Origin: an uncultured Phycisphaeraceae bacterium | GTDB taxonomy: Bacteria > Planctomycetota > Phycisphaerae > UBA1845 | Length of the DNA stretch: 64,000 nt | Reading direction: 5' to 3' | Assembly: GCA_964405925.1 (NCBI GenBank) | Contig: CAYOQG010000002.1 | Coordinates: forward strand, 2,132 to 66,131 | Part shown: one piece after another, positions 36,176 to 64,000 of the stretch | Layout of the letters: each line of letters begins with the position of its first letter | How positions within the stretch are numbered: the first letter of the stretch is position 1 | Notes under the pieces: generated by a model | What the model was told of the DNA's origin: nothing | The model's input: the letters and a program-made list of their open reading frames with translations, nothing else | Database searches by the model: none | Program-made: the position numbers and the translations under genes

Positions 36176-37489
36176 TCACTTTAATGGGCCTTTCTGGGTC
36201 AACAACGCGTCGTCGATACCACTCTCGAACTTGGCGTACTCAGCGTGGAATGCGAATCGGTCCAGCCCACGATAATGGTCGTGGATGGGGTCGGCGGCGT
36301 GGCCCATTGCCACCTTCGAGACCTCGCGACGAATCTTGCTGACGTGTGCCCGGGTCCGGTGGTAGTGCCGCAGCCAATGCCATCGAAGCAGTGACCAGGG
36401 CTTACCCGTCTTCGGGTGCTTGTCCACGAGGACGCCGGCTTCAAGCGCGTAGCGTTTCAGCCGCATGAGCGTCCTGTTGCCTGCAACCTGATTGCCCGCT
36501 TGGCTCATGAAGACCCAGTCCGAAGCCTGGCCGAGGCCCATCGAGCCAATCACGCGAGCCAGCCGATCCGTGATATGGACCGGTCGGCGAGCCGCTCGGC
36601 TCTTGGGTATCCATAGGCCATCTGCCGTCAGGCAGCGTTTACGTAGCTCAGGGCGAACTCGATCGAGGTCGGGCCGCTTGATATCCAGGATGATCTCGCG
36701 CTCCTCCAGGTCGATGTCACCGACCTGAAGGAACTGGATCTCCTGAAACCGGAAGCCGCCCTCGCAGATGAAGATGATCAGGTTCACGATCTGCGTATCG
36801 AAGTGCTTCGCAGCAACTTCGATAACCGCGTTGATCTGATCCGGGTAGATCGTCGGCGGTGGCAACGTGTGCGTCGGCAAGCGGTCAAGCTCGGCCTGGC
36901 GACCGGGCGCCGCCGGGTTCGGACCGGGCATGAGCTTACGCTTGAAGACGACATACCCGTAGAAGTTGTGCACGGCGTCCATGTAGTGATTCGCCGTACA
37001 GGGACTCACGCCGGCTTCGTTCCGCAGGTGGGTTTGGAACTTGGCCAGCAATCTCGGGTTGACGTCTTGCACGAAGAGCAACCGCCTTTTCTCCATCCAC
37101 GTTCGCAGGCAGCTCAATCTGCCCTTGAGCTTCGTAATGTAGTCGTGGCTTCGACCCAGCGTCTCGATGTATCCGATGAAGGCATCGACCACCGGGCCCA
37201 TCCGTGTTCGCTGCGGCTCTCGTTCCTGCTCCGGGTAGTGTCGCTGCTTGAAGAGCTCTTCACTCTTGCGAGCCGCGACGAGCCGAGCGAACGAAAGATC
37301 CGTCTCGCGAGTGCTCCTGCTAATCCCTTTTTTGTAAGCGCGACTCCGGCCACGTCGACCGGATGCCGTTGGCTTCGCCAGCTCCCAGTACATCTGCCAG
37401 TAAGGGCTGCGCGGGGTTAGAAAGAGCGTGACCTCGCCGACGCGTTCCGACTTAGTCCACGCGTTCTTGCGCGCCTCCTTTCTCGCCAT
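36176..37489 (-). CDS. int: Tyrosine recombinase / phage-type integrase
   Basis: The C-terminal catalytic region is LLRWHWLRHYHRTRA...VAMGHAADPIHDHYRG (R..H..R/H..Y). Length is 437 aa and the gene is adjacent to ssrA. Confidence 0.9.
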   Translation of the reverse strand: MARKEARKNAWTKSERVGEVTLFLTPRSPYWQMYWELAKPTASGRRGRSRAYKKGISRSTRETDLSFARLVAARKSEELFKQRHYPEQEREPQRTRMGPVVDAFIGYIETLGRSHDYITKLKGRLSCLRTWMEKRRLLFVQDVNPRLLAKFQTHLRNEAGVSPCTANHYMDAVHNFYGYVVFKRKLMPGPNPAAPGRQAELDRLPTHTLPPPTIYPDQINAVIEVAAKHFDTQIVNLIIFICEGGFRFQEIQFLQVGDIDLEEREIILDIKRPDLDRVRPELRKRCLTADGLWIPKSRAARRPVHITDRLARVIGSMGLGQASDWVFMSQAGNQVAGNRTLMRLKRYALEAGVLVDKHPKTGKPWSLLRWHWLRHYHRTRAHVSKIRREVSKVAMGHAADPIHDHYRGLDRFAFHAEYAKFESGIDDALLTQKGPLK

Positions 37490-38642: not shown

Positions 38643-39425
38643 CTACCCGCCTGCAATACGTTCTTCCGTGGGGCTGAAAAGGTCGTAACGTTTGGCGATG
38701 CCGGCTACGATGTCGATGGATTCGAGGCCTGCGTCCTTGCCGGCGGGGCTAAGCAGGCGATCGACCATGTTCTGCGGCAACAGCGGGCCCGCGTTCGAGA
38801 TCCGCGGCTGAATCTCACAACAACGATAGACGGCGGTCGAGAGCGAAACCTCAAAGCGACGGGTAATCAGCGGGAGTAGGCGTTTGCGCCAGAGCCATTC
38901 GGACTCGGGTGTTGCCTGCATGAGTTGGAGCGTGCAGCGGGCCCGATCCATGCCGTGTTGGTCATAGAGGCGTCCTAGCTCTCGCTCTAACAGCGGAAGC
39001 GGGACCAGGAAGGCGGCCGCAAATCGATCCGCTTCACGTTCAAGCTTTCCCGGAGATCCCGGTCCTTCGGCCGGTGTCTCGTGAAAAACGTCGCGGGCCC
39101 TGGCGTGCAGCGTCAGGTGCCCGAGCTCGTGAGCGCACGTAAAGCGACATCGCCCTTCGTGTTCCGTGACGCGCTCGTCGATGAGGATCTCCCGTTCTTT
39201 GGCGAATGTGGCCCCAAGGACATCGTGGCCGAGGTGCGAGAGATCGCTAATGCCGAAGCGTATACCGAGCGGCCCTTCGATCCAGTCTTCGACGGGGACG
39301 GGTAGGGGAATCTCCTCCAGCCCGAGCTTCCTACGGCATCGTTCGAGGCATGTCAGCGCGCGGGTTTCGATCATCCGTCTACCGTAACGGGGCTGAAAAA
39401 CCTTAGCTCGCGTAAGCTCGGCCAC
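38643..39425 (-). CDS. ImmA/IrrE-family zinc metallopeptidase (DUF955)
   Basis: The HEXXH motif occurs in the context CAHELGHLTLH. The gene is directly downstream of an XRE repressor gene. Confidence 0.8.
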   Translation of the reverse strand: MAELTRAKVFQPRYGRRMIETRALTCLERCRRKLGLEEIPLPVPVEDWIEGPLGIRFGISDLSHLGHDVLGATFAKEREILIDERVTEHEGRCRFTCAHELGHLTLHARARDVFHETPAEGPGSPGKLEREADRFAAAFLVPLPLLERELGRLYDQHGMDRARCTLQLMQATPESEWLWRKRLLPLITRRFEVSLSTAVYRCCEIQPRISNAGPLLPQNMVDRLLSPAGKDAGLESIDIVAGIAKRYDLFSPTEERIAGG

Positions 39426-39439
39426 GTATCACCTTTTGA

Positions 39440-39823
39440 TCAACGCCGCTTGTCCCCGGTCATTCGCTTCGCTTGGCCGATGAGGCGGTCCCATTGCTCA
39501 GGCGTGAGCTTTCGGGCCGTGCGCAGAAACTCGGGCACCTTCGCGGCCGTAGTGGCGTCCTGGTTGGCAACTTCCGCCACGACGGTGTCGGCCCGCTGCC
39601 AGCCTGATCGCAGGTCAGCCTCCGGCATGCCGTACGCCGCAGCGATTCTCTTGAGCAAGTCCTCCGAGGGTGTTCGGCGCCCCTTCTCGATGTCCGTCAG
39701 ATGGGCTGGCGCGATGCCGAGAATTCTCGCCATCTCGCGCAAGCCCTTCTTGAGTGTTTCCACACGTTGTGCTCGGAGGACCTCGCCGATGGGTTGTTGT
39801 CTGTATGGTCTCTTCTGGGCCAT
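39440..39823 (-). CDS. XRE-family HTH transcriptional regulator (ImmR-like)
   Basis: LREMARILGIAPAHLTDIEKGRRTPSEDLLKRIAAAYG is a classic XRE HTH. The start is set at MAQKRPYRQQ (cat 39821..39823). Confidence 0.8.
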   Translation of the reverse strand: MAQKRPYRQQPIGEVLRAQRVETLKKGLREMARILGIAPAHLTDIEKGRRTPSEDLLKRIAAAYGMPEADLRSGWQRADTVVAEVANQDATTAAKVPEFLRTARKLTPEQWDRLIGQAKRMTGDKRR

Positions 39824-39864
39824 TATCGTGCTCTCCAATCCAATCGTTCGCTTACATGCTAACA

Positions 39865-40467
39865 TCAGATTGGGGCCGGGTCAAGGCTCTGACCATTTTT
39901 TTCTGCGAGCGGTGTCCGGCGGACGAACACGGGGGCCGAAGCGGGTGGCGGCTTTCGGTATGCGTACCGGCGAAGACTCAGTACTGGTGCGAAGAGATAA
40001 GTGGCAATGCAGGCGATGTAGCCAAGATACGCGACCTCGACCGATTCCGGCCGGCCAAGTGACTGAAACAGGCAAGCGCAGCCCCAGAGCATGGCCTCGC
40101 AAGCGGTAAGGAGGGCCAGAATCGTCCCCTGGCCCGATCGGCCTGCGGCTTTCCTGCGGTTTGGGTGGCGGGACTGGAAGACCAGCAGTTCCTCCCTCGC
40201 AAGCTGGTTCACCGAGCGTTCGATCTCGTCAATGCGACGGAGGTGGTCTTCTTTCGCCCGAGCGTGGGCGACGGTGGTCGTCAGAAGCCATGCAAACGCC
40301 GCCGGTATCGGCTCTACCTGCTGTACGAGAGGGTGTACCGCAAACACATCTTGCTGTTCGCTTACGGATGCTGCAAAGTCAATCGCGGCACAGCCAGTAT
40401 CTTCACGTTCTGCGTACAAAGGGCCGGGGCGGCGAAATGACAACCACCCCGGTGCTGTGTTGGACAA
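39865..40467 (-). CDS. Hypothetical protein with C-terminal TM segments
   Basis: Hydrophobic stretches are ILALLTACEAMLWGCACLF and YLGYIACIATYLFAPVL. No family is recognised and coding status is uncertain. Confidence 0.45.
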   Translation of the reverse strand: MSNTAPGWLSFRRPGPLYAEREDTGCAAIDFAASVSEQQDVFAVHPLVQQVEPIPAAFAWLLTTTVAHARAKEDHLRRIDEIERSVNQLAREELLVFQSRHPNRRKAAGRSGQGTILALLTACEAMLWGCACLFQSLGRPESVEVAYLGYIACIATYLFAPVLSLRRYAYRKPPPASAPVFVRRTPLAEKNGQSLDPAPI

Positions 40468-41786: not shown

Positions 41787-41897
41787 ATGGTCAATAGACC
41801 CCTCCTTCTGTTTGTGGCTGTGCTCCCAGAGCGCGGTCAGCGACGGGAAGCTCTCGTCGGGTCTGCGGCGAAACAACTCGTTGTGGGCGCGCCCTCG
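41787..41897 (-). pseudogene. N-terminal fragment of a DUF932-like gene (paralogue of 58473..59183)
   Basis: RAHNELFRRRPDESFPSLTALWEHSHKQKEGSID aligns with RAHNELFRRGPDERFDSLVDLWQHCHDEKERSVD of the intact copy, and the nucleotide similarity is also visible. There is no start codon in frame and homology is lost after ~37 codons. Confidence 0.6.
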
Positions 41898-42149
41898 TGC
41901 ACCAGAAGGCTGGTGCCTGACACGCCCCGCGCGTGAGAAAACGCCAGCATGAGCTGACAATTGCTGCGCGGTACGGTAGGAATGCGGAGCGGGTCTTGAA
42001 CCCGTGGTCGTCACGAACGTCAACACGTTGCCGTGGCGCCGTACAAATGGGCGGCATCACTCGGTAAACCCGGCCTCACCAGCCGGGCTAAGAGAGCGGT
42101 CTCACCAACCGCTACGGTGCTACCCGTAGAGCCGGACCGCGTCGAGAGG

Positions 42150-44574
42150 GTGCGCCGTGGTGCGCACCGAGTGAATTCCCGAGTAAATCGGGTGGAGTTC
42201 AGGGACGGACTCCGAGGCGAACCAGCTTACCTGGAGCCGAAAGGTGATGGGGACAAGAGCATGCTGGTGAAGCGGAGGGCGCCGGAAGGCGTGTATGGAG
42301 TCGCTCCGCAACGCCTGAGCGATAAGGTTAAGGCTGGATTGCTTGAACCCCAATGTCCAGCGGTAGAAGCGCAGACCCGTCGGCAGCACGCTTGAGGCCG
42401 GCGCCGCCGACAGCCACGGAATCCGCCTCTCATCCGTGGTAGTCCCTGGTTGGCGGGCGATGCGCAGTGAGCGCATCCAAGGGCATGAGTGGGGAACCTA
42501 CGTCGCTCTAGAACGTTCCTCGGTGACGAAACACGGGATCGCCTAAGGGGCGCGAGCCCTAAGGTGACGGAGTCCTCGTAGTAGTCGTGGGAGTAACGCC
42601 CCGCCAGGGAGAACGGGAAAGCCGTTCACAGGGCGAAGGGGGACAGGTAGTTGTGATGTCAGATCCATGAGGTACGCGAGATGCGGACAGCCGAAACGGT
42701 ACTGAACATCCTACGTGAGAGGGCAACGTGGTTTGCCCGTGGAAGGGCTGTATCGACAGCTCTACCGAACTGACCTGTACCTGCGTGCCTACGCGAAGCT
42801 ATATGCGAACGACGGCGCGCTGACAGCAGGCGTAACGGAAGAAACGGTGGACGGGATGTCGCTGGCGAAGATTGACGCCATCATCGTGGCACTACGGCGC
42901 GAGGCCTATCGCTGGACGCCGGTGCGGCGGACGTATATCCCGAAGAAAAACGGCAAGTTGCGGCCGTTGGGTATGCCGACTTGGAGCGACAAGCTTCTTC
43001 AGGAAGTGATACGTTCGCTCCTGGAGGCGTACTACGAGCCGCAGTTCAGCCATCGCTCACACGGTTTCCGTCCGGGACGCGGCTGTCATACGGCGCTTCG
43101 GGAGATACAAACGAATGGGACAGGAACCAAGTGGTTTATTGAAGGCGACCTATCAAAGTGCTTCGATCGCATCGATCACTCGGTGCTGATGAGCATTCTC
43201 GCCGAGCGAATCCACGATAACCGGTTCCTTCGCCTGATTCGCAATCTCCTGGACGCCGGATACTTGGAGGACTGGCAGTTCAACGCCACTTATAGCGGAG
43301 TGCCGCAAGGTGGTGTGATCAGCCCGTTACTTTCAAATCTGGTACTGGACAAGTTGGACGAGTTCGTCGAGACGAAGCTGATCCCGGCATACACACGGGG
43401 CCACCGCAGGAAGACCTACGCTCCTTATGTCGCGCTGACCGTTGCGGCGTCGCGGGCGCGGAAACGCGGGGATCATGAACGGGCCAAAACGCTCATGCGC
43501 GAGGCTCGACGGCTTCCCTCCAGGAAGCCGGAAGACCCCAACTACCGGCGCCTGTGGTACGTGCGGTATGCCGACGACTTCCTGCTCGGACTCATCGGCC
43601 CGAAGGCCGAGGCAGAAGAGATCAAGCGGAAACTCGCCTCGTATTTACGTGACGAGTTGAAGCTTGAACTCAACAGGGACAAGACGCTCATCACGCATGC
43701 GCGGGATGGGCGGGCGAAGTTCCTGGGGTACGAGGTGCATACGATGCACGCCGACGATCAGCGCGACCTTCGTGGTCAGCGTGGCATCAACGGCGGTATC
43801 GGGCTGCGCGTCCCGCGACACGTGATTAACGAGCATTGTGCTCGGTATATGCGACGCGGGAAGCCGGCGCACCTGCCTGAGCGACTGAACGACAGTGCAT
43901 ACAGCATGATCGTTCGCTATCAGGCAGAGTACGGAGGCCTCGTGCAGTATTACCGGCTGGCGTACAACCTGCATACGCTTCAGCGATTGAAGTGGGTCAT
44001 GGAGGTGTCGCTGGTCAAGACGCTGGCCAACAAGTTCCGCACGACCGCCCGGAAGGTTTACCGGCGGTTTGGAACGCGCCTGGAAACACCGGACGGCACG
44101 TACAAGGTGCTGCAGGTGGAGGCGCCGCGTGGCCCCGGCAAAGAGCCGTTACGGGCTCATTGGGGGGCCATCCCGTTGAAGCGGAACCCCTGGGCGGCGG
44201 TCTGCGAATCCGAGCGGAAGATTTGGAGCGGTCGTAGCGAGTTGCTGGAACGGCTGTTGGCGCAGAAATGCGAGCTTTGTGGTGGACCGGATGATATCGA
44301 AGTCCATCATATTCGAAAGCTCGCCGATGTGCGCAAGAAAGGCCGCTCCCGGCCCAAGTGGATGGAAATCATGGCGGCACGCCGGCGTAAGACTCTCGTG
44401 GTCTGTCGGGCGTGTCATGATGAAATCCATCATGGGCGCTACGACGGAGCTGCGGTCGCGTAGTGCAACTACTGGAGAGCCGGGTGATAAGGAAACTATC
44501 ACGCCCGGTTCGGAGGAGAGGTGTTGGAAAAGCGTCCCGATGCACGGGGATGGCTCGCTGGCATCTTATCCTAC
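42150..44574 (+). mobile_element. Group II intron 1 (RT/maturase/HNH-encoding)
   Basis: The 5' end is GTGCGCCGTGG at 42150. Domain V is at 44477..44511 (GAGCCGGGUGAUAAGGAAACUAUCACGCCCGGUUC). The DVI-like 3' end is ...CAUCUUAUCCUAC at 44574. The intron is collinear with intron 3 in domain I. Confidence 0.8.
42715..44463 (+). CDS. Group II intron reverse transcriptase/maturase with a C-terminal HNH endonuclease domain
   Basis: RT motifs are present (KKNGKLRPLGMPTWSDKLLQ, GVPQGGVISPLLSN, YVRYADDFLL). The maturase X region is YGGLVQYYRLAYN. The HNH domain is CELCGG...VHHIRKL...CRACHDEIHHG. It shares the run YRWTPVRRTYIPKKNGKLRPLGMPTWSDKLLQEVIRSLLEAYYEPQFS with the RT at 56155..57963. The tracked start is a GTG, and the expected ATG (42681) is in another frame. 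Confidence 0.85.
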   Translation: MRGQRGLPVEGLYRQLYRTDLYLRAYAKLYANDGALTAGVTEETVDGMSLAKIDAIIVALRREAYRWTPVRRTYIPKKNGKLRPLGMPTWSDKLLQEVIRSLLEAYYEPQFSHRSHGFRPGRGCHTALREIQTNGTGTKWFIEGDLSKCFDRIDHSVLMSILAERIHDNRFLRLIRNLLDAGYLEDWQFNATYSGVPQGGVISPLLSNLVLDKLDEFVETKLIPAYTRGHRRKTYAPYVALTVAASRARKRGDHERAKTLMREARRLPSRKPEDPNYRRLWYVRYADDFLLGLIGPKAEAEEIKRKLASYLRDELKLELNRDKTLITHARDGRAKFLGYEVHTMHADDQRDLRGQRGINGGIGLRVPRHVINEHCARYMRRGKPAHLPERLNDSAYSMIVRYQAEYGGLVQYYRLAYNLHTLQRLKWVMEVSLVKTLANKFRTTARKVYRRFGTRLETPDGTYKVLQVEAPRGPGKEPLRAHWGAIPLKRNPWAAVCESERKIWSGRSELLERLLAQKCELCGGPDDIEVHHIRKLADVRKKGRSRPKWMEIMAARRRKTLVVCRACHDEIHHGRYDGAAVA

Positions 44575-44738: not shown

Positions 44739-47321
44739 GTGCGTCTCGACGCTTCGAGACAAATCCTGCCAAGGGGGTTCGGGCCGAAGCCCACTTCGCG
44801 TGGGCCCACTCGGGTGGAAGGCTCGTCAGGTTCGTTCAACCTCTGCCAGCGTGGGGAGTTCGCAGCGTGGTGACGCGCGCGACCGGGCTTGGACCAAGCT
44901 CGGGGACCCTCGTCAAGCACGAGGGCTACGAAAAGCTCAGGGCGCGGCGCTAGGCCGCGTGGCAATGTTGGCGAGAGCCAACCTGGATTGGAGGAAAATC
45001 CAGTCCTCACCCCAGCGAAGTTCGGCGATTGCCAGCCGAACGGGCAATAGCTTCTGGGGGACAACGGCGAGTCGTGCGGGGAAGCTATCTCCCCAAGATG
45101 CGAACGTCGTGGATAGCTGATATGGCTAGCCGGTTATTGGCAAACTCGAGGTTCCTAGAATTCGCTGAACACGCTCGACGCTCAGGCGATAACGATAGCA
45201 AATGGAGCGTGGAGGACGAAGCGGACGGGTCGTTGAGCTTACTCGTCCCTCGTATGGCTTCGGTCATGCGGGCGCTCGGTGGTTCCTCAACATCACCATC
45301 GAGCCAGTTCTCAAGCGCGGTACGCCGCGTCAAGGAACCGGAAGAGAGTCTAAGTCAGCGGGCAAATTGCCACGCGAGCAACGCCGGAACCCGACGGTGC
45401 TTCCTCGATTAGGCGAGGATAGGTCGGTAGATGACCAATGCATCGTTCGGGGGCAGCGAGACCGTAGTACTCAGAGACGGTAGGACCGATCACATGGGGA
45501 AGGGTCTCAGGTTCAGTGGTTCCAGATGATTTGGAAACGGGCGGCTGTAGGCCGCCGAACATGGAGGACCATGATCGACGTAACCAAAGAAATGGAACAT
45601 CTGTTTCGCTTGTCGAAACGCGAGCCCGGCAAGCGTTTCAACCGGCTCTGGGCCGTCGTGACGGCGCCGGAGTGGTTGACGCACGCTTGGGCGCAGATCC
45701 GGGGTAACCGGGGCAGCCGAACGGCCGGTATCGATGGCGATACGGCCGCCGGCATCGACCCGGCCCGGATCGACTCGTTATCCAGAAGTCTGCAGGCGGG
45801 CACGTACCGGCCAAATCCGGTGCGTCGCGTCTACATTCCGAAGGGCAACGGGAAGTTGAGGCCGTTGGGAATCCCGACGATCGAAGATCGCATAGTGCAG
45901 CAGGCCTTGCGCATGGTGCTCGAACCGATCTTCGAAGCGGACTTTCTCGACTGCTCTCATGGCTTCCGTAGGAAACGGAGTGTTCATACGGCGTTACATG
46001 ACGTCGCGGTGGCGTACCCTCGCACGAGTTGGATCGTCGAGGGCGACATCGTCGGATGCTTCGATAACATTCCGCACGGAAAGCTATTGGAAGCAGTGCG
46101 CCGCCGCGTGGCGGACGTGAAGGTTGTCAGCCTGATCGGGCGTTTTCTCAAGGCTGGGTATATGGAGGATTGGGTGTATCACAGGACGTATAGTGGGACG
46201 CCGCAAGGAGGCATCGTTAGCCCGCTACTGTGCAACATCTTCCTCCACCAACTGGATGAGTTCATGGCCCGGGAGCTTGAGGCGAATCGACGGCAGACCG
46301 CTCGGGAGGCCTCTCGGCGTGTGTCGAAGGGGTACCAGCGTGTCAGCCGCGAGCTTCGCAAGCGGCGCATGCAATTGAAGCGGGCGTCACGCGCGGAGCG
46401 TCGAGTGCTTCTGGATGAACTCGGCCAGTGGGAGAAGCAGCAGCGACGAGAGCCGTACTTCACGGAACGCCATCCGTGCAAGTTTGGCTACGTGCGCTAT
46501 GCCGATGATTTTGTCGTGATGGTCAACGGCACCAAGGAGGACGCCGAGGCCGTGAAGCGACAAGTAACGGACAAACTGGAGTCGATGGGACTGACGCTCA
46601 GTGATGAGAAAACTAAGCTCACCCACTGGCGAAATCCCGTGACGTTCCTGGGTTTTAACGTCCAGGGACGGCCACGACCGAAGGGCGTCCAGATTACGGC
46701 CATCTTCTCAATCCCACCGGAGAAAGAACGTCAGGTTCTTCGGGAGATCAAGACGGTCTGTAGTTGGAACCAGTTGCCGGAAGCCGACGTGATGTGTCGC
46801 GTCGGCGCGATCTACCGGGGCTGGTGCAACTACTACCGGTTCGCCAGCGGACCGCAGAGCGTGTTCAGCCGCGTGTCGTATCAGGCCTGGTGGCATTATG
46901 TGCGTTATTTGGCGCGTAAGCGCCATGCGCGCATTCCCCAGGTCCTTCGGCACGAGAAACGTGCTGGGCGCCTGCGCACGCTGACGGTGAAGGGACGTAC
47001 GGTGCAGACATTCCATACGAAGTCGGACGGTAAGGACTACTCTCTGAACATTGTTCCTCCAACCACGAGGAGCATTTGGATGGTACCCAAGCCAGACGGC
47101 TGGAATGTCGACCTGCGGCCTCTTCCACCCGATGAGTGGACCCGTTGGCAATACCGGATGAAGCGTTCGACAAACTGGCCACCGCCGACACGTGGGGCGA
47201 TGGTCGAGAGCAGTAATTGGACTGGAGCGCCGGATGCGCGGAAACGTGCTTGTCCGGTGCGGGAAGGGCTGCATGAAAACCAAGCTTCGTGAGAAGTCCA
47301 GGCGTCATGCTTCCACTTCAT
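44739..47321 (+). mobile_element. Group II intron 2 (different lineage; the RT lacks an obvious HNH domain)
   Basis: The 5' end GTGCGTCTCGACGCTTCGAGAC is at 44739. Domain V is at 47227..47260 (GCGCCGGAUGCGCG-GAAA-CGUGCUUGUCCGGUGC, with a CGC triad). The DVI helix is GGGAAG/CUUCC-A-C with a bulged A at 47315. The 3' end is estimated at 47321 (+/-2). The boundaries were hand-folded. Confidence 0.6.
45526..47292 (+). CDS. Group II intron reverse transcriptase/maturase
   Basis: RT motifs include GIDGDTAAGID, KGNGKLRPLGIPTIEDRIVQQAL, GTPQGGIVSPLLCNIFL and YVRYADDFVV. The maturase region is YRGWCNYYRFAS. The C-terminal codons overlap domain V. The start may be M at 45571 or 45592. Confidence 0.85.
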   Translation: MIWKRAAVGRRTWRTMIDVTKEMEHLFRLSKREPGKRFNRLWAVVTAPEWLTHAWAQIRGNRGSRTAGIDGDTAAGIDPARIDSLSRSLQAGTYRPNPVRRVYIPKGNGKLRPLGIPTIEDRIVQQALRMVLEPIFEADFLDCSHGFRRKRSVHTALHDVAVAYPRTSWIVEGDIVGCFDNIPHGKLLEAVRRRVADVKVVSLIGRFLKAGYMEDWVYHRTYSGTPQGGIVSPLLCNIFLHQLDEFMARELEANRRQTAREASRRVSKGYQRVSRELRKRRMQLKRASRAERRVLLDELGQWEKQQRREPYFTERHPCKFGYVRYADDFVVMVNGTKEDAEAVKRQVTDKLESMGLTLSDEKTKLTHWRNPVTFLGFNVQGRPRPKGVQITAIFSIPPEKERQVLREIKTVCSWNQLPEADVMCRVGAIYRGWCNYYRFASGPQSVFSRVSYQAWWHYVRYLARKRHARIPQVLRHEKRAGRLRTLTVKGRTVQTFHTKSDGKDYSLNIVPPTTRSIWMVPKPDGWNVDLRPLPPDEWTRWQYRMKRSTNWPPPTRGAMVESSNWTGAPDARKRACPVREGLHENQAS

Positions 47322-49592: not shown

Positions 49593-49949
49593 CTATGCTG
49601 GCTGAGCCTTACGTTTGGTCGAGACGAACCGAATCTCGACTCGCTTATCGAGTGCGGCGGCGATGCGGCGTAGGACGGCGAGCGAATGGCCTTCATAGTC
49701 GGCGTCCTCAAGCCGACAGATGGCCGACGCGCTGGTGCCGACGAGCTTCGCTAACCTGCGTTGGGATAGCCCGGCGTTAGTGCGGAGGTCGTAAATCTTC
49801 TGGGCAATATCGAGGTTCGCCTCTTCTTCCGCCACGGAGGCAAGACGCTCGGGGTCGTTGCCGATGTAGCGGTCGTAGAGGTACTGAACGGCGTCAGATT
49901 TGGCCTTGCGCTTGTTGACGTTCTTCTTCGTGGCTTTCTTGTTGCTCAT
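49593..49949 (-). CDS. XRE-family HTH antitoxin (HigA-like)
   Basis: LRTNAGLSQRRLAKLVGTSASAICRLED is an XRE HTH. The gene has a 4-nt overlap with the upstream toxin gene. Confidence 0.8.
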   Translation of the reverse strand: MSNKKATKKNVNKRKAKSDAVQYLYDRYIGNDPERLASVAEEEANLDIAQKIYDLRTNAGLSQRRLAKLVGTSASAICRLEDADYEGHSLAVLRRIAAALDKRVEIRFVSTKRKAQPA

Positions 49950-50323
49950 GATTCGTCCTCGGGTTTGAACGTGTGGCTCGCAGGGTCTCGTTCAAACTCC
50001 TTCTTCCGTTCGACGGCTTTGTCGATTTCCATCGGCGGCACCCGTCGCTCTTTGGTCAGGCCGTGCGAGACCACGGTAGCTCTGCGGCCATGAAAGAAGT
50101 AAAGCATGCGGTAGTTGATACCTTCCAGGCCGACCCGTAGCTCATAGATATCGTCCCGCAGATAGTCTGCAATCGGACGGCGCAGCTCGTGGCCGAACTC
50201 CCGAAGTCGCTTGAGCCGGGCGAGGCACTTGTTCTGTGCCTTGGCCGACAAGCCGTCGAGCCATTCGACCAACGGGACGGTCCCATCGTCCTCCTTGAAA
50301 AAAACGAGCTCAATACGCGGCAT
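49946..50323 (-). CDS. RelE/ParE-superfamily toxin (HigB / Gp49-like, DUF891-type)
   Basis: VFFKEDDGTVPLVEWLDGL...IYELRVGLEGINYRMLYFFHGRRATVVSHGLTKE is the typical phage Gp49/HigB-like pattern. The toxin-first order matches HigBA. Confidence 0.8.
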   Translation of the reverse strand: MPRIELVFFKEDDGTVPLVEWLDGLSAKAQNKCLARLKRLREFGHELRRPIADYLRDDIYELRVGLEGINYRMLYFFHGRRATVVSHGLTKERRVPPMEIDKAVERKKEFERDPASHTFKPEDES

Positions 50324-50593: not shown

Positions 50594-51736
50594 CTAGATC
50601 GGCACGTCGTGGGAGGCGCTCTCGGATGTCCGGCGGCGGCGCTTGTCGTAGATCTGCGTTGTCGTGATGTGGCGGTGGCCGAGGAGTTCCTGGACCTTCA
50701 CGATGTCGACGCCAGCGTCTAGAAGCAAGGTCGCCACGGTGGCCCGCAGGGAGTGCGGGGTGTAGATGCACCGTATCCTTGTCGTTCCATCCGGGTCCGC
50801 GTGCTCCTTCATGGCACCGGGTAGGCGCTCAAGATAGCTCATGATTAGCTTGTACATCGTTACGGGGGCAAGAGCCCGGTTCCCGAGTCTCTTGCTCCGT
50901 GGGTTCAGCCTGACTCTGAAGAGGGCGCCGCTCGTGATGCCGGCCTGTTCGATGTACTGGCTAATGGCGTCCGCAGCGACGAAGTTGAGGCCGATGGTGC
51001 GCCGCTTCTTGCCTTTATCACCGACGCGGATCGTAGCCCCTACGCCCTCCTGGTGCAAATCCGCCACTCTGAGCTGCAATCCGGTGGTCAACCGGCACCC
51101 GCTGTAGAGATAGCACTTGAGGATGGCCCGGTCACGGTAGTCAAGCACGTTGTCGCCGCTGGGCAGTACCATCAACTGCCGAGCCCGGGTGACCGTAAGG
51201 GCCTTGGTCTCGTCCACCGGATCGGTCGATTCGCGGGAGATGAACTGGGCGTGCGCCGGATTGGGCACAACGATCGGCAGCCGCATGTCCGCTGCGGCGT
51301 TGGCCAGATACTTGTAGAAGCTGGAAACCGACGAAACCCGTCGGTTTAGCGTTTTCGGCGCGGCGCCGCTTGCGATGAGTTCGTCCCGCCAGTTTTGGAC
51401 GTCGGCGACCGACGCGGCAAGCATTCTCCAGGCCTCGTTCGGCCAGGTTATACCGAGAAACTCGATCAACGAGCGCAGATCCTGACGGTAGGCCCGCTGG
51501 GTGTGAGCACTGCTACGGCGGGTGACCCAGGTCTCGAAGGCCTCGGCCACAGAGAAGTAGAAGCGTTCAACGCGAGAGCGAACCTGGGGCGTGTCATTGC
51601 CGACGAGAATTCGGGGCAGTTCTTCGGTGTCGCGAACAACGGGCAGCGGTTTGTTCAATGGGCCTCCATGCCAATGATGTGTCACTACAAGCGGGGATCT
51701 CTGAGAAAGATAACAGATTTTATCTTTCCTGGTCAA
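50594..51736 (-). CDS. Tyrosine recombinase (XerC/D-like site-specific integrase), second copy in the element
   Basis: The N-terminal SAM-like segment is HTQRAYRQDLRSLIEFL. The catalytic C-terminus is TPHSLRATVATLLLDAGVDIVKVQELLGHRHITTTQIY. Confidence 0.9.
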   Translation of the reverse strand: MTRKDKICYLSQRSPLVVTHHWHGGPLNKPLPVVRDTEELPRILVGNDTPQVRSRVERFYFSVAEAFETWVTRRSSAHTQRAYRQDLRSLIEFLGITWPNEAWRMLAASVADVQNWRDELIASGAAPKTLNRRVSSVSSFYKYLANAAADMRLPIVVPNPAHAQFISRESTDPVDETKALTVTRARQLMVLPSGDNVLDYRDRAILKCYLYSGCRLTTGLQLRVADLHQEGVGATIRVGDKGKKRRTIGLNFVAADAISQYIEQAGITSGALFRVRLNPRSKRLGNRALAPVTMYKLIMSYLERLPGAMKEHADPDGTTRIRCIYTPHSLRATVATLLLDAGVDIVKVQELLGHRHITTTQIYDKRRRRTSESASHDVPI

Positions 51737-54668: not shown

Positions 54669-55689
54669 CGTGTCATCCTCCCGTTCCGGGCGCCCGGCGA
54701 CACCGGCGCGACGTGACTCCGGTGAGAAGCACCGGTCGCTGATCACCCGATCTCACAGCACGGCCATGACGGTGTTGCTGGCTTGGCCTTCGCCGGCTTT
54801 GTTGACCGCGATGACGCGGTATTCCCATTCCTTGCCGCGCTCCTGATTCGAGTAGGTAATCCTCGCTTTGGCTCGGTGACAGTCCGGTCAGATGCGGCGG
54901 TTTCCGGCCGATGCTTGGCGGCCGGTCCATCCGACGCGCCAAGCCCCCTCGCAGCCGTCGCGTCCGCCGAGGCTGCCCTGTCAACGCGATGCCGCTATCG
55001 TACACAATCGCCGAACGTGCGCCAACCAGAGATGGGGGCGGTTCGAGTGAGAATTGAACGCGATCGACCAAGATGGTGGGCGTTCCGGCGGGCGGGAGCG
55101 ACGCGGGAACATAGGTTCGCTCGGTGTCGATGGCCCGGCTCCGTGGGTCCGCCGATTCATTTGCCTAAATGGGGATCGGCGTCAAGTCACGCCGTTAAAG
55201 CCGCCGGGGCGAATCTGCAGACGCGAACCCTGGTAGCGGCGCCGGCCAAATGGGACGTGCGTCAGCGCAAACGCGCGGACCGTTGCGGCTACGCCCTCAA
55301 GAAAGCGGGCGCCGAGCTTATCTCCCACAACGTCGCATTCGAATTGGATGATCTGCAGGCTCTCAATGACCGCATCGAGGTTCTCGCCGAGAGATGTTGA
55401 GAACTGTCGCTGATGCGACGGCTCAACAGGCTCATAATCCGTTCGGTTGTCCATAATCCCAGCATGCCATAACTCGGGGTCCGGTTGCAACCCAATCGTG
55501 CTGTGCGTTCGTCGTATGCAGAAAAAACGAGAAGTCCAGTCTCCTTTACTGAGTGGAGAGCACAGCGATGAATCGCCCGGCGCGGGTGGAGCGCGGACAC
55601 GTAGCGTGCGCTGCTGATGACGAACGAGGAAGAGAGATTCGGTGGTGCGGTGAACCTTCTTCCGTTCGCCTGGGCCTCGGCGGCCGATC

Positions 55690-56073
55690 TCAGGCTGCAA
55701 GGGCCAGGAGTTGGCCGGCCTTCTCGTCGGCTTCGGTTCGGTCGCCGGCGTTTGCGAACTTGCCGGAGAGCCGCGTCAGCGCGTCCACGATCGAGAAGAT
55801 CGTAAACCGCCCCCGCTGCTCGGCAATCTTCAGCGCCTCTTTGGCCAGCGTGCGAGTGATCCCGTGCTTGGCGAGTGTCTTGGCGACTTCTTCGGCGTCG
55901 TCGCCAAGCTTCGTCTGCATGGCTTGCTTGATCACCCGAGCGAAGCCGTCGCGTCGCGCGTCCCGTTGCTCGACCAGATTCAGAATGATCTGGCGAATCT
56001 GGTTCAACGACTCGTGCACGTTGGCCGTGTGTTTGCGGCTGAATTCCACGACTTCGACCGCATCCCAGACGAT
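55690..56073 (-). CDS. DUF932-like protein, exon 2 (127 codons plus stop)
   Basis: It begins ATC GTC TGG GAT (IVWDAVEVVEFSRKH...) immediately after the intron 3 3' end. It is in frame with exon 1 when 58473 is joined to 56073. Confidence 0.75.
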   Translation of the reverse strand: MVWDAVEVVEFSRKHTANVHESLNQIRQIILNLVEQRDARRDGFARVIKQAMQTKLGDDAEEVAKTLAKHGITRTLAKEALKIAEQRGRFTIFSIVDALTRLSGKFANAGDRTEADEKAGQLLALAA

Positions 56074-58472
56074 GTAGAGTAGATGGCTGACGAGGTATTC
56101 CGACGAATCGGAACCCTTTTCCAACCATCCCTCCCCGAACCGGACTTGACCCTTTCAGATCATCCGGCTCTCCAGTGTCTTCGCGTCCTTGCGTGTCCTT
56201 GTCGGGCGTCCGTCGTGGATCGCCCGATGACAAGCGTGGCAAACCACCAGGGTCTTGCGACGGCGCGCGGCCATCACCCGAACCCACAGCGGTTTGTCCG
56301 ACCGTCCCGGCCTGCTCAAATCCTTGAGCGCGCGAATGTGATGGACCTGAACGGTTTCCCGTGATCCACACAACTCGCACTCATCGGCAAGCAGGCGTTG
56401 AACCAGTTCCGCCATGTTGATCATGGGAACCGGTTCGCGGTCGACAAGTTCTGTGTCGAGCCTCCGGGCCAAGGATATGGCACCCCAGCGAGCAATCAAC
56501 GGCGGTTTGTCGCCGCGATCGATCCGAACTTCCAGCACCCGTCGGGGGCCGTGCTCGGTCTCGATCGTTGTGCCGTACCGGTCGTAGATCTTCGGAACGC
56601 TGATCCGCAACTTGGCGGCCAGCGTCCGCATCAACGAACCGTGCATGGCCCATTTGAGCCGACTGAAGTCACGAGTGTTGTGAGCCATGATGTAGTAATT
56701 CACGATGCCTCGATACACACTCTGATGCTGGGCCACGATGTCAAACACCGAATGCTCCAGTAGTTCAGGGCGGTGTGCCGGTCGACCGTGTTTTACATAC
56801 GGCTCACTCTTAGCTCGGATGACGTCCTTTGGCACCCTCAGGCCAATGACTCCGTTAACGGATCGTTGTCCATTGGTGTGCTTCCGGTCGTCCTGCGTCA
56901 CGCACAGGTCGTAGCCGAGGAATCTCGCCTTCTCCGAGCGCCCATGCGTGATGAGCGTTTTCTCTTCGGAGAGTTCCAGCTTGAGCTGCTCCCGAAGGAA
57001 TGAGCCAAGCTGGTGCTTGATGCCCTCAGCCTCCTGGCGTGTCCCAACGAATCCCAGCAGGAAATCATCGGCGTACCGAACGTACTTGAGCCGCCGATAC
57101 TCCGGGTCGTCCATGACTCGCGACGGAAGCTGCTGCGCCTGCTTGAAAAGCCGGCGGGCCTCTTCCTCACGTCCCAGACGCCGGAGATACCGCGACCGAT
57201 GGTACAACCGTCCGTACTCCGGATTCGGTTTCCGATCATTTCCCCGGGTGTTCACCGGGATGAGCGTCTGCTCGACGAACTTGTCCAGCCGGTCAAGGTA
57301 GATATTACTGAGGATGGGGCTCACGATTCCCCCTTGCGGCGAGCCGCTGAGGGTGCCGTGATACTTCCAGTCCTCCAGGTATCCAGCCTTGAGTAGGTTC
57401 TCGATCAACCGCAAGAAGCGATTGTCGAGGATTCTCTCGCAGAGCATCGATACCAGGACCGTATGGTCGAGATTATCGAAACAGCCGCGGATATCCCCTT
57501 CGATGAACCAAACCGTTCCTCTCCAGTTGAAGTAGATTTCCCGCAGGGCCGTATGACAGCCACGGCACGGCCGAAACCCGTGGGAATGATCGCTGAATTG
57601 CGGCTCGTAGTACGCCTCCAGGAGCGAGCGAATCACTTCTTGCAGAAGCTTGTCGCTCCAAGTGGGCATGCCCAACGGGCGCAGTTTCCCGTTCTTCTTC
57701 GGGATGTACGTCCGCCGAACCGGCGTCCAGCGATACCGCTCGAAGCGCAAAGCATCAATGATGTCCTGAATCTTCGTAAGCGACATTCCGTCAACGGTTT
57801 CTTCCGTGACACCGCGCGTCATGGCCCCGTCGTTGCGGTAAATCTTCCCATACGCCTGGAGATACAGCGCCGGCTTGTAGAGTTGCCGATACAGATTCTG
57901 TAGCGGCAATCCACGCTCGCCACGACTACGGATGATGTTCAACAAGACTTCGGCGTTTCGCATCCTGCGTACCCTGGTCTCCTGAACATCGAAGACACCT
58001 GCCTCCCTTCGCCATGTGGTCGGCTTTCCCGACCTCGGACTACTACGGAGGCTCCGTCACCTTAGGGCTCGCGCCCCGTAGGCGATCCCGTATTCCCTAA
58101 TCGTTAGCATTCACAGCGTGACTTAGGCGCCCCGTTCGTCCCCTTGAGCGGTCTCCTTGACCGCCGCCTGCGGACCAGAAGGTCCGACGGCAATCACATA
58201 ATCCGTCGTCAGCCCGCAGCATCGCTAAGCGTGGTCGCGATGGATGTGCGCAATGCATCACCGGAGACTGGGATTCAGGCAGTTTAGCTTTCGCCATATC
58301 ACGCGGGTCTTGCGGCACTCTGCCGTACACGCTTTCCGACAGCCACCGCTTTACCAGCATGCGATTGTCCCCCTTGGCTTTCGCCGCAAGGTAGGCTGGT
58401 TAACCCAGGAGGTTTCCTTCTGAACCTCCTCCCGACTGTGTCGGGTCTCTAACGACTGGTGAAACGGCGCAC
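56074..58472 (-). mobile_element. Group II intron 3 (paralogue of intron 1) inside the DUF932-like gene
   Basis: The minus-strand 5' end is GTGCGCCGTTTCACC at 58472. Domain V is at 56137..56170 (GAGCCGGAUGAUCUGAAAGGGUCAAGUCCGGUUC). The 3' end is ...CCAUCUACUCUAC at 56074. Length is 2399 nt. Confidence 0.85.
56155..57963 (-). CDS. Group II intron reverse transcriptase/maturase/HNH endonuclease
   Basis: The N-terminus is intact (MRNAEVLLNIIRSRGERGLPLQNLYRQLY). RT motifs are SPQGGIVSPILSN and YVRYADDFLL. The X domain is YRGIVNYYIMAHN. The HNH domain is CELCGS...VHHIRAL...CHACHRAIHDG. Confidence 0.9.
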   Translation of the reverse strand: MRNAEVLLNIIRSRGERGLPLQNLYRQLYKPALYLQAYGKIYRNDGAMTRGVTEETVDGMSLTKIQDIIDALRFERYRWTPVRRTYIPKKNGKLRPLGMPTWSDKLLQEVIRSLLEAYYEPQFSDHSHGFRPCRGCHTALREIYFNWRGTVWFIEGDIRGCFDNLDHTVLVSMLCERILDNRFLRLIENLLKAGYLEDWKYHGTLSGSPQGGIVSPILSNIYLDRLDKFVEQTLIPVNTRGNDRKPNPEYGRLYHRSRYLRRLGREEEARRLFKQAQQLPSRVMDDPEYRRLKYVRYADDFLLGFVGTRQEAEGIKHQLGSFLREQLKLELSEEKTLITHGRSEKARFLGYDLCVTQDDRKHTNGQRSVNGVIGLRVPKDVIRAKSEPYVKHGRPAHRPELLEHSVFDIVAQHQSVYRGIVNYYIMAHNTRDFSRLKWAMHGSLMRTLAAKLRISVPKIYDRYGTTIETEHGPRRVLEVRIDRGDKPPLIARWGAISLARRLDTELVDREPVPMINMAELVQRLLADECELCGSRETVQVHHIRALKDLSRPGRSDKPLWVRVMAARRRKTLVVCHACHRAIHDGRPTRTRKDAKTLESRMI

Positions 58473-59183
58473 ATGATTCGCGCAGATCGACTGGTACCAG
58501 AACGTTTGGACGCCGACCGAGCGCCGACCCACCTCCGAGTTCCAGAGGAAAAACCCCGGCGCGAAAGCCTCGCCGTCGATCTCCGCCCAGCCGGCCGGGT
58601 CGATCAGGAAACAGAACATGTCCTGTTCACCGCAGTACAGTCCGCTGGCACGCGACTCCTCGGGCTCCGGGTCGGGGTCAAACGGGATGTCGTCATCCAC
58701 CGTGGAACCCGTCGGCTGCGGTATACCGGCCTTTTGCGGCGGCTGAAAGTCCGTGGCAAACTCCCGGACCATCGTGAGCAGGTCCGCGTTGTAGAGCCGC
58801 GTGTAGCTGGCACCATGGATGGCCCGCACGGTGTTGTCCATGGTCAGCGCCTGCAGCGGCTTGCCGTCCGAGGGCAGCGTCTCGAAGAAGACGCGGCCCG
58901 CCGTCTCGGCCGACACTTTGTTCAGCGTGTCCTTGCTCACCCCGGCCAGGCGGCAGAGCTGCGAGTAGCTCCAGTCGTTCATGTCGAACGTGCCGTCCTG
59001 GCCGAGCGCGAGCTGGAAGCGGCCGCCGACAGGCTCGGCCTTGATCCCCTGCGGCGGATGCCAGCGGTCGACCGACCGCTCCTTCTCGTCGTGGCAATGC
59101 TGCCACAGGTCGACGAGTGAATCGAAACGCTCATCGGGACCTCGTCGAAACAATTCGTTGTGTGCACGTGTGAGGTTTTGCAT
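58473..59183 (-). CDS. DUF932-like protein, exon 1 (237 codons)
   Basis: An RBS (aaggagaatccg) precedes ATG 59183. The sequence reads MQNLTRAHNELFRRGPDERFDSLVDLWQHC...FWYQSICANH, followed by the intron GTGCG. The family name is recalled from ICE/plasmid 'DUF932' proteins and has not been searched. Confidence 0.8.
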
Positions 59184-59433
59184 CGGATTCTCCTTCTAAA
59201 GAGTACGGTTCTAGAACCTTCAATAGACCTTCTGTCGCACCACCGGTCTCTCTCGACCACCTCGTGTGTACAGAGCACGCAGGCCGACGAGAGATATCGA
59301 GGTGTCGTCTACACGATTCGATTGAGAAGGAACGACAGAACCAGCGCACCTTGCGGGATGAAGTGAGACGCGCGGGCCGCGAGTCGAGGGGGCGAGCATG
59401 CTGCGGTGGGGAACCCTCGAATCGAGACGCTGG

Positions 59434-61971: not shown

Positions 61972-63174
61972 CTACGGGTTGAGCTTGCCGTCCTTCAGCC
62001 ATATCGGGGCAAGTTCCTTAAACAACTGCCAATCTGCTCGGAGACGGTCCCACGCCTCCTTGTCATCGCCGGGTGTCTCGGGCCACGGCGGCCGGTCGTT
62101 GGCGTTGCCCATCATGCCCCCGAGGGTCACGCCGCGGGCGACCTGGACGAAACTCTCAAAATCGTTGACTGCGTTGTAGCGATGCAACCTTCGGACTGAT
62201 ATGGGGCCGGGCTCTGAATCTCGAGGGGCCATGCCTTTGCTGCCGCGCGCACCCGTCTCCCACCAGCCGTCGGCAAGAAACGGGGCAAACTTCTTTTGGA
62301 TGCCCTCGTCGCTGGCGAGTGTGCGCAGTCTCTCCTGCTTGGCGGCCGCCGCTTTGCGGATCGACTCGGCCTCGATCTCTTTGCGCTGGCTCTCAAGCTG
62401 AATTTCAAGCTGCGCCTTCTGGGCCTCTCGAATCTCAGCGTCCTTCCTGCGCTGAATTCCCAGAAGCTCTTCCGTCGTTTCTCGTTCGGCCTCTTCGCGT
62501 GCGGCGCTTAGCCTGCGAATGCGCTCGGCCATAAAATCCTCGTTGGCCCGGTCCATCGCCTCTTGGAGAGTGATCGCCGCAGGTTCCGCGGAGCGTTTGG
62601 CGCTGGCCAGCATGCCTTCGATCGTCTTACGGCCTCGCTGGTAGGGCGCAATGGCGTCAGCAATCTCACTCTTGAGGACGTCAAGCTCGGTATACACCTG
62701 GTCATCAGGCTTGAAGATGGAATCGCGGTTCTTCAACGCCTCGTTCGCATGTTGCAGGATCGGCATCAGGCGTGCGCGAAAGGCTGGTGCGGCGGCGGCC
62801 GCAACACGCTCGGTGTTGTACTCGCGCGCAAAGGCGTTCACGTAGTCGCGATTTGCCGCCAGAAACCTGCCATTCTCGTCGGTCAGGAGCGGTTCGATGC
62901 GCTCTTGCCACGCAGCCAGTTCGGCGTCGAACTGATCGATCGACCGCAGGCACTGGTCGGCCCGCTGCTTGACGGAGCGTCGGCCCGTTTCCGCAAGCAT
63001 CCATTGTTCCTTCTGAGAATCGAGAAATGTGGCCTGTTCCTCAGGAGTCCGATCGACTGCCGCCGTGCCCCCTCCGGACGGAATCACAGCCCGTACAACC
63101 AGGGCGACGGCTATGACGCCGGCCAGACCGATGAGGCCGTACTTGATGATCATCTGTTTGTGTTCCACGTTCAT
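61972..63174 (-). CDS. Membrane-anchored coiled-coil protein (transfer-region hypothetical)
   Basis: The N-terminal TM is IIKYGLIGLAGVIAVALVV, followed by long E/R/A/K coiled-coil segments. There is a 4-nt overlap with the upstream T4CP gene. Confidence 0.65.
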   Translation of the reverse strand: MNVEHKQMIIKYGLIGLAGVIAVALVVRAVIPSGGGTAAVDRTPEEQATFLDSQKEQWMLAETGRRSVKQRADQCLRSIDQFDAELAAWQERIEPLLTDENGRFLAANRDYVNAFAREYNTERVAAAAAPAFRARLMPILQHANEALKNRDSIFKPDDQVYTELDVLKSEIADAIAPYQRGRKTIEGMLASAKRSAEPAAITLQEAMDRANEDFMAERIRRLSAAREEAERETTEELLGIQRRKDAEIREAQKAQLEIQLESQRKEIEAESIRKAAAAKQERLRTLASDEGIQKKFAPFLADGWWETGARGSKGMAPRDSEPGPISVRRLHRYNAVNDFESFVQVARGVTLGGMMGNANDRPPWPETPGDDKEAWDRLRADWQLFKELAPIWLKDGKLNP

Positions 63175-64000
63175 GATTCGGGTCCTTCAAGTTGGTCAAT
63201 TCGGCTTTCGAGTTTGTCCAAAAGAGCTGTTCGGGCGCGCTCCTGTTCGATCGGGCCCTCGCTCGGCGGTTCGCCTGGGACGGGACTCGTCGACTGGAGC
63301 GGCGTATGAGTAGGCTCGGCGATCGTGGGGGTGATGGTGCCCTCGGCTTGTTCTGGCCATTGGGCGGATTCTCGGGCACGGTAGTCGCGAAGCGGTATGT
63401 GGTACTCACAGCGCATGGGGAAAGTATACCCGCCGAACTGTGTGTAGCCTCGGCTGCGAGTGATGTGCACGAGGCTATGCATCTCGGCGTCGCCGGCTTC
63501 GATGATGTCGTTGCGGCGAAGGACCGGGCCGATCTGCTCTTTGATGTGGATGGGCGTAGTGCTGGCGTCGCCGAAGCCGGGCGGGCGCGGCCCCATGTGG
63601 CCGGCCTCGAAGTCGTCCAGATCGACCCGCCAATCAGCCATGTGATAGAGCGCCTCTCCTGAAGCGTCCATGACCGCTTTCTGCTGAGCCAGGTCGCTGG
63701 CGGAGAAGACCTGCTTGAAGCGGGTGTTGCCCTGCACGACGGGGATCAGGTTACCCGCCGGCGGCTTGTCGAGCTGCGAGAGGTTCTGATGGGAGAGGAT
63801 GCAGTTGAGATGATTGTGGCGGGCCTGTTCCAGAATGATGGCGAGGTTCTCGGTGACGATCTGTTGGAACTCGTCGATGACCACGTACACCGTGAAATCT
63901 GCGAACCCGCGTCTAACGGAAGCCGCGAGCAGCGAGAACAACGCCAGTTTGGCGATTTCGGCAACGCTCCTCTCCTCTATCGACGAGGCCAGGGAGAAGT
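63171..64000 (-). CDS. Type IV coupling protein (TraD/TraG/VirD4-like), C-terminal part; the gene continues beyond the window
   Basis: Contains a Walker B-like motif (TVYVVIDEFQQ) and the ILSHQNLSQL motif typical of T4CPs. The frame stays open from 63941 to base 64000 (...LASSIEERSVAEIAKLALFSLLAAS) in my hand translation. Confidence 0.75.
   Translation of the reverse strand, partial: FSLASSIEERSVAEIAKLALFSLLAASVRRGFADFTVYVVIDEFQQIVTENLAIILEQARHNHLNCILSHQNLSQLDKPPAGNLIPVVQGNTRFKQVFSASDLAQQKAVMDASGEALYHMADWRVDLDDFEAGHMGPRPPGFGDASTTPIHIKEQIGPVLRRNDIIEAGDAEMHSLVHITRSRGYTQFGGYTFPMRCEYHIPLRDYRARESAQWPEQAEGTITPTIAEPTHTPLQSTSPVPGEPPSEGPIEQERARTALLDKLESRIDQLEGPES

Follow-up and report, generated by a model that had tools for sequence, protein, structure and literature searches.

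A probably mobile, Ll.LtrB-like group II intron interrupts a DUF932 gene in an integrative element of a planctomycete

The 64,000-nucleotide (nt) stretch of DNA analysed here (hereafter the window), from contig CAYOQG010000002.1 of an uncultured Phycisphaeraceae bacterium, carries on its minus strand a DUF932 gene that is split by a group II intron. Our results suggest, with a probability of about 0.85, that a complete and mobile Ll.LtrB-like intron has retrohomed into the sense strand of this gene, in an integrative element of a planctomycete, and that splicing restores the gene. The split gene is composed of the following parts:

58473..59183, minus strand: exon 1 of the DUF932 gene, 237 codons, 711 nt, with the C-terminal sequence ...FWYQSICANH
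56074..58472, minus strand: complete group II intron, 2399 nt, from 5' GUGCGCC to CUACUCUAC 3', delimited by the empty allele and the Rfam 3' end
56155..57963, minus strand: intron-encoded protein (IEP), 602 amino acids (aa), with reverse transcriptase (RT), maturase (X) and HNH endonuclease regions
55690..56073, minus strand: exon 2 of the DUF932 gene, 127 codons plus stop, 384 nt, starting AUC GUC UGG GAU (IVWD)

A first-pass annotation of this DNA had proposed that the open reading frame (ORF) starting at 59183 reads ...FWYQSICANH, enters a group II 5' end and stops 7 codons later, and all the coordinates of this reading hold. The exon 1 ORF, which has a Shine-Dalgarno-like motif (AGGAG) upstream, continues into GTGCGCCGTTTCACC and meets a stop after 7 codons. 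Joining 59183..58473 to 56073..55690 keeps the frame and gives a product of 364 aa (237 + 127), placing the intron between codons 237 and 238 of the DUF932 gene; both translation and the empty allele L004, described below, confirmed this join. By tblastn, exon 1 corresponds to aa 1-238 of the joined product. The ligated-exon junction is expected to be ...GCGAAUCAU/AUCGUCUGG... (here and below the slash marks a junction or splice site) or, when written from the last exon 1 bases, ...UGCGCGAAUCAU/AUCGUCUGGGAU... A terminator scan gave one terminator-like site, which was no better than chance and is uninformative for this phylum.

The limits of the intron could be read from a natural empty allele. 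The 90% cluster that includes the window ORF also contains P0124, an uninterrupted protein of 364 aa, and P0121, a partial one. The latter, from a different metagenome, ends in the same intron read-through (...CANHVRRFTSR). The DNA encoding P0124 (L004), from another metagenome, is a 90% identical, intron-free allele in which L004 224..1049 corresponds to window 59300..58473 and L004 1050..1523 to window 56073..55600. In L004, the two exons meet directly at the predicted junction (...tgcgcgaatcat/atcgtgtggg), and the uninterrupted target site reads ...TTTGCGCGAATCAT/ATCGTGTGGGAT... Thus, the intron is fixed as 58472..56074, 2399 nt. The Rfam model RF00029, which covers domains V and VI, gave a minus-strand match at 56172..56074 (score 61.8 bits, E = 1e-9; the Rfam gathering score is 40), which terminated exactly at 56074, the 3' end chosen in the first-pass annotation. 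This 3' end is identical in the related copies L001, L002, L003, L006 and L008.

The joined 364-aa protein has 2980 homologues, the best of which shows 100% coverage and 79% identity. The best 120 of these 2980 are 341-397 aa long, except for the window's own truncated ORF of 244 aa, and nearly all of them have 95-100% query coverage and 62-79% identity. Many homologues are named DUF932 in Planctomycetes or Phycisphaerae genomes, and several carry the NCBI name DUF932 domain-containing protein. As had been suggested for CANH/IVWD, more than 100 full-length homologues run across ...CxNH/IVWD... without a gap. In an alignment of 20 sequences, there was no gap at the junction and residues N236, H237, V239, W240 and D241 were invariant, which places the junction within the most conserved block of the protein. 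The Pfam DUF932 (PF06067) match to the joined protein extends across the junction (aa 205-292), with a score of 22.0 bits against a gathering cutoff of 23; its closest homologue, P0001, scored 23.3 bits, and 67 of 73 close homologues matched DUF932 (E < 1e-3). The match of the joined protein to PHROG 1362 also bridges the junction. The AlphaFold2 model of P0001 (predicted local distance difference test score, pLDDT, of 78.5) matched phage DUF932 proteins over the full-length fold (E = 3e-14, template modelling score 0.57-0.61). A fold search of the PDB with the DUF932 host protein gave no significant match (best E = 0.14), and nothing on DUF932 function was found in the searched literature.

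The C-terminal region of the joined protein (aa 283-330, about 55790..55935 of the window, minus strand) is helical and has weak histone-fold-like matches, both to NCBIfam archaea_histone (E = 0.004) and, by sequence profile, to archaeal histones of the PDB (E = 0.06-0.3), all of them below thresholds. One DUF932 homologue is named 'histone H3/H4' by JGI.

Comparison of the window with the empty allele revealed 81 synonymous and 26 non-synonymous changes, and the ratio of non-synonymous to synonymous substitution rates (dN/dS) was 0.078 in each exon separately. Thus, neither half resembles a decaying pseudogene and, as judged by these substitutions, both exons are under strong purifying selection.

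The intron itself begins with GUGCG (58472..58468) and ends with ...CUAC at 56074. The elements recognised within it are:

58252..58247, minus strand: exon-binding site 2 (EBS2), UGCGCA, intron nt 221-226, in a hairpin loop about 50 nt upstream of EBS1
58198, minus strand: candidate delta nucleotide, a U directly 5' of EBS1 that could pair with A(+1) of exon 2
58197..58192, minus strand: EBS1, GUGAUU, intron nt 276-281, in the terminal loop of a hairpin
56137..56170, minus strand: domain V, a 34-nt helix with an AGC triad, from the RF00029 alignment (RNAfold -17.9 kcal/mol)
56074..56136, minus strand: domain VI, with a bulged A at 56080, from the structure line of the RF00029 alignment

RF00029 agrees with two further features of the first-pass annotation, a domain V that overlaps the stop of the IEP and a domain VI helix that ends at 56074. 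The IEP stop codon (UGA) lies inside the terminal loop region of domain V. The bulged A is located 7 nt before the 3' splice site and is presumed to be the branch point.

The last 12 nt of exon 1, UGCGCG followed by AAUCAU, are the intron-binding sites IBS2 and IBS1. In the window copy, EBS1 pairs 6/6 with the final six exon 1 bases (AAUCAU), while EBS2 pairs 6/6 with IBS2 at exon positions -12 to -7. A single six-base match is weak, since several occur by chance in 520 nt; we therefore compared six related copies from other loci. EBS1 forms six of six pairs in all seven copies (the window plus these six), and a U to C change at exon position -4 goes with a compensatory A to G change in EBS1. 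EBS2 forms 4-6 of its 6 pairs across the seven copies, and two of its positions covary (exon UGCGC with loop GCGCA versus exon UGCCU with loop AGGCA). Of the two types of contact with exon 2, IIA-type delta-delta' and IIB-type EBS3, we compared delta-delta'. It is U(58198)-A(+1) in the DUF932 intron and G-C(+1) in a paralogous intron of the window (intron 1, below), that is, a covarying pair. The exon pairings that the first-pass annotation had anticipated against ...UGCGCGAAUCAU thus exist, and they covary. Moreover, RNAalifold analysis of domains I-III of the intron copies gave 147 pairs, 53 of them conserved via double changes, with EBS1 and EBS2 both in loops. As judged from the aligned copies, the ribozyme is under selection.

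The intact RT/maturase/HNH ORF noted at 56155..57963 in the first-pass annotation was recovered with Pfam RVT_1 (1.7e-30), Intron_maturas2 (1.2e-14) and AI2M-like_HNH (1e-14). Its motifs are kept, including YADD at aa 297 and CxxC...HH...CxxC at aa 529-578, and it scored 268.9 bits against TIGR04416, under the equivalog cutoff of 300. The closest solved relative of the IEP is LtrA of Ll.LtrB (5g2x), which it matches end to end, including the endonuclease (En) region (E = 2.8e-122); the next PDB matches, IIC and chloroplast-like (CL-type) RTs, cover the RT fingers only (1e-29 to 1e-39). From this similarity and one tertiary pair, we conclude that the intron is Ll.LtrB-like and probably of the mitochondrial-like (ML)/IIA-type lineage.

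We then turn to related copies. We searched genome and metagenome collections with a degenerate DNA pattern that encodes W-[FY]-Q-x-[VI]-C-x-N-H and ends in GTGCG. It gave five further loci. Each of the five is a DUF932 gene in which a related intron follows the same codon as in the window; only the contigs of L006 and L008 extend to the 3' junction. L006, from a Pirellulales metagenome-assembled genome (MAG), and thus from a class that differs from that of the window's Phycisphaerae-like relatives, carries a 2403-nt intron between ...CGNH and IVWD. Its intron is 82.2% identical to that of the window, compared to 66.5% and 67.0% for the two exons. The corresponding values were 87% for the intron and 71% for the exon in L007, and about 89% and 63-71% in L008. 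Overall, the intron DNA of the DUF932-site copies is 80-89% identical to that of the window and the host exons 63-71%, and full-intron copies at other loci have 82-92% identity to the window intron. Since the intron DNA is far more alike than the host exons, these identities argue for lateral homing into diverged DUF932 genes and not for co-inheritance.

Two of the copies, L001 (560..2957) and L002 (ENA ERZ25073475/4), are 92% identical to the window intron and reside in an rve_3 integrase-core transposase gene. There the insertion is in the sense strand and in frame (...ECLNH/IIVLNEAHLRRIL), and the target core GAAUCAY/AUC is common with the DUF932 site. A single entry into an ancestral DUF932 gene, followed by vertical inheritance, would also predict what we observed at every occupied DUF932 gene found, an identical position. 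We consider this highly improbable in view of the intron and exon identities of L006, L007 and L008, the 90% identical allele L004 that is empty, the very few occupied sites compared to the 2980 protein homologues, and the near-identical copies in an unrelated transposase gene.

In addition, the L008 locus (Ga0210366_10036898, about 544..1193, minus strand) contains a 650-nt ORF-less derivative of the intron at the same DUF932 codon. In this derivative, the IEP ORF has been cleanly deleted, with the IEP start codon and domains I-III, V and VI still present; it would need maturase in trans. Another locus, L003/L005 (Phycisphaerae MAG JAUWNI010000128.1, 1000..4200), consists of DUF932 exon 1, the intron and, in place of DUF932 exon 2, the 3' half of an rve_3 transposase gene (MIVFNEAHLRRIL...). 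This hybrid may have arisen by recombination of two intron copies, or the MAG assembly may be chimeric across this 2.4-kb repeat. Taken together, the filled, empty, ORF-less and transposase-gene copies indicate recent retrohoming of the intron.

The split gene is part of an integrative mobile element. The landmarks of this region are:

35751..36106: transfer-messenger RNA (tmRNA) gene, from the Rfam scan
36176..37489: tyrosine integrase, directly after the tmRNA gene
50594..51736: second tyrosine integrase, about 14 kb beyond the first

Past the first integrase are a HTH_17 protein and an ImmA/IrrE-Xre pair. The second integrase is followed by a 905-aa hydrolase/Big_2 protein, the split DUF932 gene, genes without a family and a weak TraG/TraD-type match. 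The arrangement resembles a stack of two islands at the tmRNA site. A direct repeat of the 3' end of the tmRNA gene (att) was looked for and not found within the 64-kb window. Two gene pairs were also observed, both on the minus strand: ImmA/IrrE (Peptidase_M78) with an Xre-type helix-turn-helix (HTH) protein at 38643..39865, and a Gp49/HigB-like with a HTH_37/HigA-like protein at 49593..50323. Such ImmA/IrrE-Xre and HigB/HigA-like pairs are typical regulatory and toxin-antitoxin modules of mobile elements.

The first-pass annotation had taken the DUF932 gene for a gene of an integrative and conjugative element (ICE). The integrative part of this claim is supported by the integrase beside the tmRNA gene. 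For the conjugative part, the window offers one TraG-D_C match (63171..63941), with an E value of 0.0018 that is below cutoff, close to where the window ends (64000); the neighbours at 59.4-64 kb gave no PHROGs or NCBIfam match. On long contigs, uninterrupted homologues have as neighbours ParB_N, UvrD and DEAD helicases, a DUF87/TrwB-type ATPase and an integrase. No relaxase was seen at the related locus with the DUF87/TrwB-type ATPase, ParB_N and helicases, and neither relaxase nor type IV secretion system (T4SS) genes were seen within the window. The ICE label is therefore plausible, not demonstrated. Similarly, an intron inside an ORF had been regarded as unusual. The intron does interrupt a coding gene, but an integrase-bearing island by the tmRNA gene is the normal habit of such introns and not an exception, as bacterial group II introns habitually live in mobile DNA (PMC7306698, a survey of intron neighbourhoods).

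The first island contains remains of other insertions. A second DUF932 fragment, corresponding to aa 6-39 (41790..41891, minus strand; 68% identical, E = 1e-10), is cut off after ...SIDH, about 260 nt away from the nested introns described next; apparently, this island once carried its own DUF932 gene, since destroyed. Intron 1 (42150..44574, plus strand) interrupts domain V of another group II intron, with flanks at 42129..42149 and 44575..~44645. Its IEP (42715..44463, 582 aa) is 59% identical to that of the DUF932 intron, and its EBS1 loop CCUCUC pairs 6/6 with the flank GAGAGG. The joined flanks (GAGCCGGACCGCGTCGAGAGG/CGCTTATCCGGTTC) give a canonical 35-nt domain V fold (-20.1 kcal/mol) followed by a domain VI-like helix. 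The arrangement thus seems nested and twintron-like, the outer intron being a 3' remnant only. Intron 2 (~44739..47321, plus strand) is of a different lineage and starts about 90 nt past the 3' end of the outer intron. Its IEP (45526..47292, 588 aa) is without the HNH domain and 36-38% identical to the other two, and Rfam places its domain V/VI at 47225..47321; for the 5' end, neither of the two GUGCG candidates (44739 and 45074) has a matching EBS1. We also considered that introns 1 and 2 could split a gene. This was rejected, since six-frame translation of the flanks gave no ORF across and the flanks of intron 1 rebuild a domain V.

This picture bears on the state of the DUF932 intron. If splicing had been lost, the DUF932 gene would be knocked out, a pseudogene in a decaying island, and non-coding DNA of the adjoining island does hold nested or tandem introns, besides the truncated DUF932 fragment. 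Moreover, the upstream rve_3 exon in which the L001 copy sits contains an in-frame stop, indicating that copies can persist in dead genes. We regard a dead insertion as quite unlikely, however, because the IEP ORF is unbroken and keeps its catalytic motifs, domain V, the branch A of domain VI and the 5' GUGCG are canonical, both EBS1/IBS1 and EBS2/IBS2 are complete in the window copy, and the two exons are open, with the low dN/dS given above.

Several points weigh against our interpretation of a mobile intron whose splicing restores the gene. If the insertion is very recent, most of the selection behind the low dN/dS could be older than it. The island decays elsewhere, at the truncated second DUF932 gene and the nested introns, and the element may be inactive. 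A sigma-70 consensus scan gave no promoter-like site, the consensus being uninformative for this phylum. The ML/IIA class rests on the best PDB match and the delta-delta' pair, not on phylogeny or a full comparison of RNA structures. Finally, splicing, lariat formation and protein production are here predictions from DNA.

The mechanism that we propose follows the established pathway of Ll.LtrB-type group II introns. The DUF932 gene would be transcribed as a pre-mRNA of about 3.5 kb carrying the intron, and the 602-aa IEP would be translated from domain IV, bind the intron and assist its folding. A56080 would attack the 5' splice site (58473/58472), while the IBS1/EBS1 and IBS2/EBS2 pairings keep exon 1 in place, and the freed exon 1 would attack the 3' splice site (56074/56073). 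The predicted products are the mRNA for the 364-aa DUF932 protein and a lariat ribonucleoprotein (RNP). This RNP would reverse-splice into intron-less DUF932 alleles at UGCGCGAAUCAU/AUC, and the HNH domain would nick the opposite strand for target-primed reverse transcription. Since unspliced RNA would yield only the 244-aa truncated protein, which lacks the conserved C-terminal third, expression of DUF932 would depend on splicing. Splicing and mobility in vivo are inferred, and any regulatory use of this dependence would be a further inference.

The first-pass annotation had also suggested that intron activity could be coupled to the function of the element. This idea is reasonable but not new, since a splicing-dependent mobile-element gene is already established in principle for Ll.LtrB: in the ltrB relaxase gene, splicing of this intron controls relaxase level and conjugation (PMC1874635, PMC7293003, PMC6003770). 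A stronger version would be that the intron has been co-opted as a regulator, so that the efficiency of splicing, depending on temperature, stress or IEP level, sets the DUF932 level and hence the activity of the element. The dependence on splicing is structural, the insertion lies within the most conserved block of the protein, the association of intron and DUF932 occurs in at least two planctomycete classes, and Ll.LtrB in its relaxase gene is a precedent (PMC7293003, PMC6003770). Even so, we find such a regulatory role rather unlikely. Occupied sites are few and the usual allele is empty, which fits a parasite better than a regulator; insertion into a conserved motif is the usual way in which homing elements secure their DNA target; and DUF932 has no assigned function.

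Equally tentative, and in our opinion doubtful, is a broader proposal, in which an Ll.LtrB-like lineage has specialised on the C-x-N-H/I-V-W-D motif of DUF932, uses integrative elements as vehicles across Planctomycetota and, through its splicing efficiency, gates the DUF932-dependent maintenance or transfer of the elements. If true, this would be a second, independent coupling of the intron/relaxase type, in a phylum without prior study of conjugation or group II introns.

With the retrohomed, splicing-dependent insertion as our preferred reading, the locus adds a clean and so far unreported case to a well-known arrangement. It is not surprising to a specialist and leaves the general understanding of group II introns unchanged. 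Its value is that of a model case, a fully delimited, ORF-inserted group II intron with natural filled, empty and ORF-less alleles and with EBS/IBS covariation. The searched literature yielded no paper on group II introns of DUF932 genes, nor any specific to those of Planctomycetes, and no group II intron biology is reported there for Planctomycetota. The intron also marks C-x-N-H/I-V-W-D as the most constrained part of DUF932, a widespread protein of phages, plasmids and islands, and a comparison of intron-plus and intron-minus alleles would provide a natural switch for studying DUF932 function.

Among known systems, the closest is Ll.LtrB of the Lactococcus lactis pRS01 and sex factor elements. 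Both introns share the RT, maturase and HNH/En architecture of the IEP, EBS1 and EBS2 with a delta position adjoining EBS1, and a location in the sense strand of a mobile-element ORF whose expression requires splicing, as reported for Ll.LtrB (PMC1874635, PMC7293003) and predicted here. The host gene is different, DUF932 here and a relaxase there, as is the host, a Phycisphaerae-like planctomycete instead of a firmicute. Moreover, our intron, characterised from its sequence, lies in an integrase-bearing island of the chromosome, and neither a relaxase nor a T4SS was seen within the window. The nested and shortened copies recall the twintrons and ORF-less derivatives of Trichodesmium (PMC4649490) and Thermosynechococcus (PMC2882425): intron 1 is located in domain V of another intron, and the 650-nt L008 intron at the DUF932 site has no ORF. 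Here, unlike in those twintrons, the outer intron appears as a 3' remnant only, the nesting being our reading of the joined flanks. Finally, as occurs with the introns 'hiding' in mobile elements (PMC7306698), the DUF932 intron lies inside integrated mobile DNA beside integrases, and its sister copies are found within a transposase gene and within another group II intron. Unlike those, the DUF932 intron family prefers one conserved coding motif, which it re-uses across diverged genes, a site preference closer to the specificity of organellar introns and homing endonucleases than to generic hiding.

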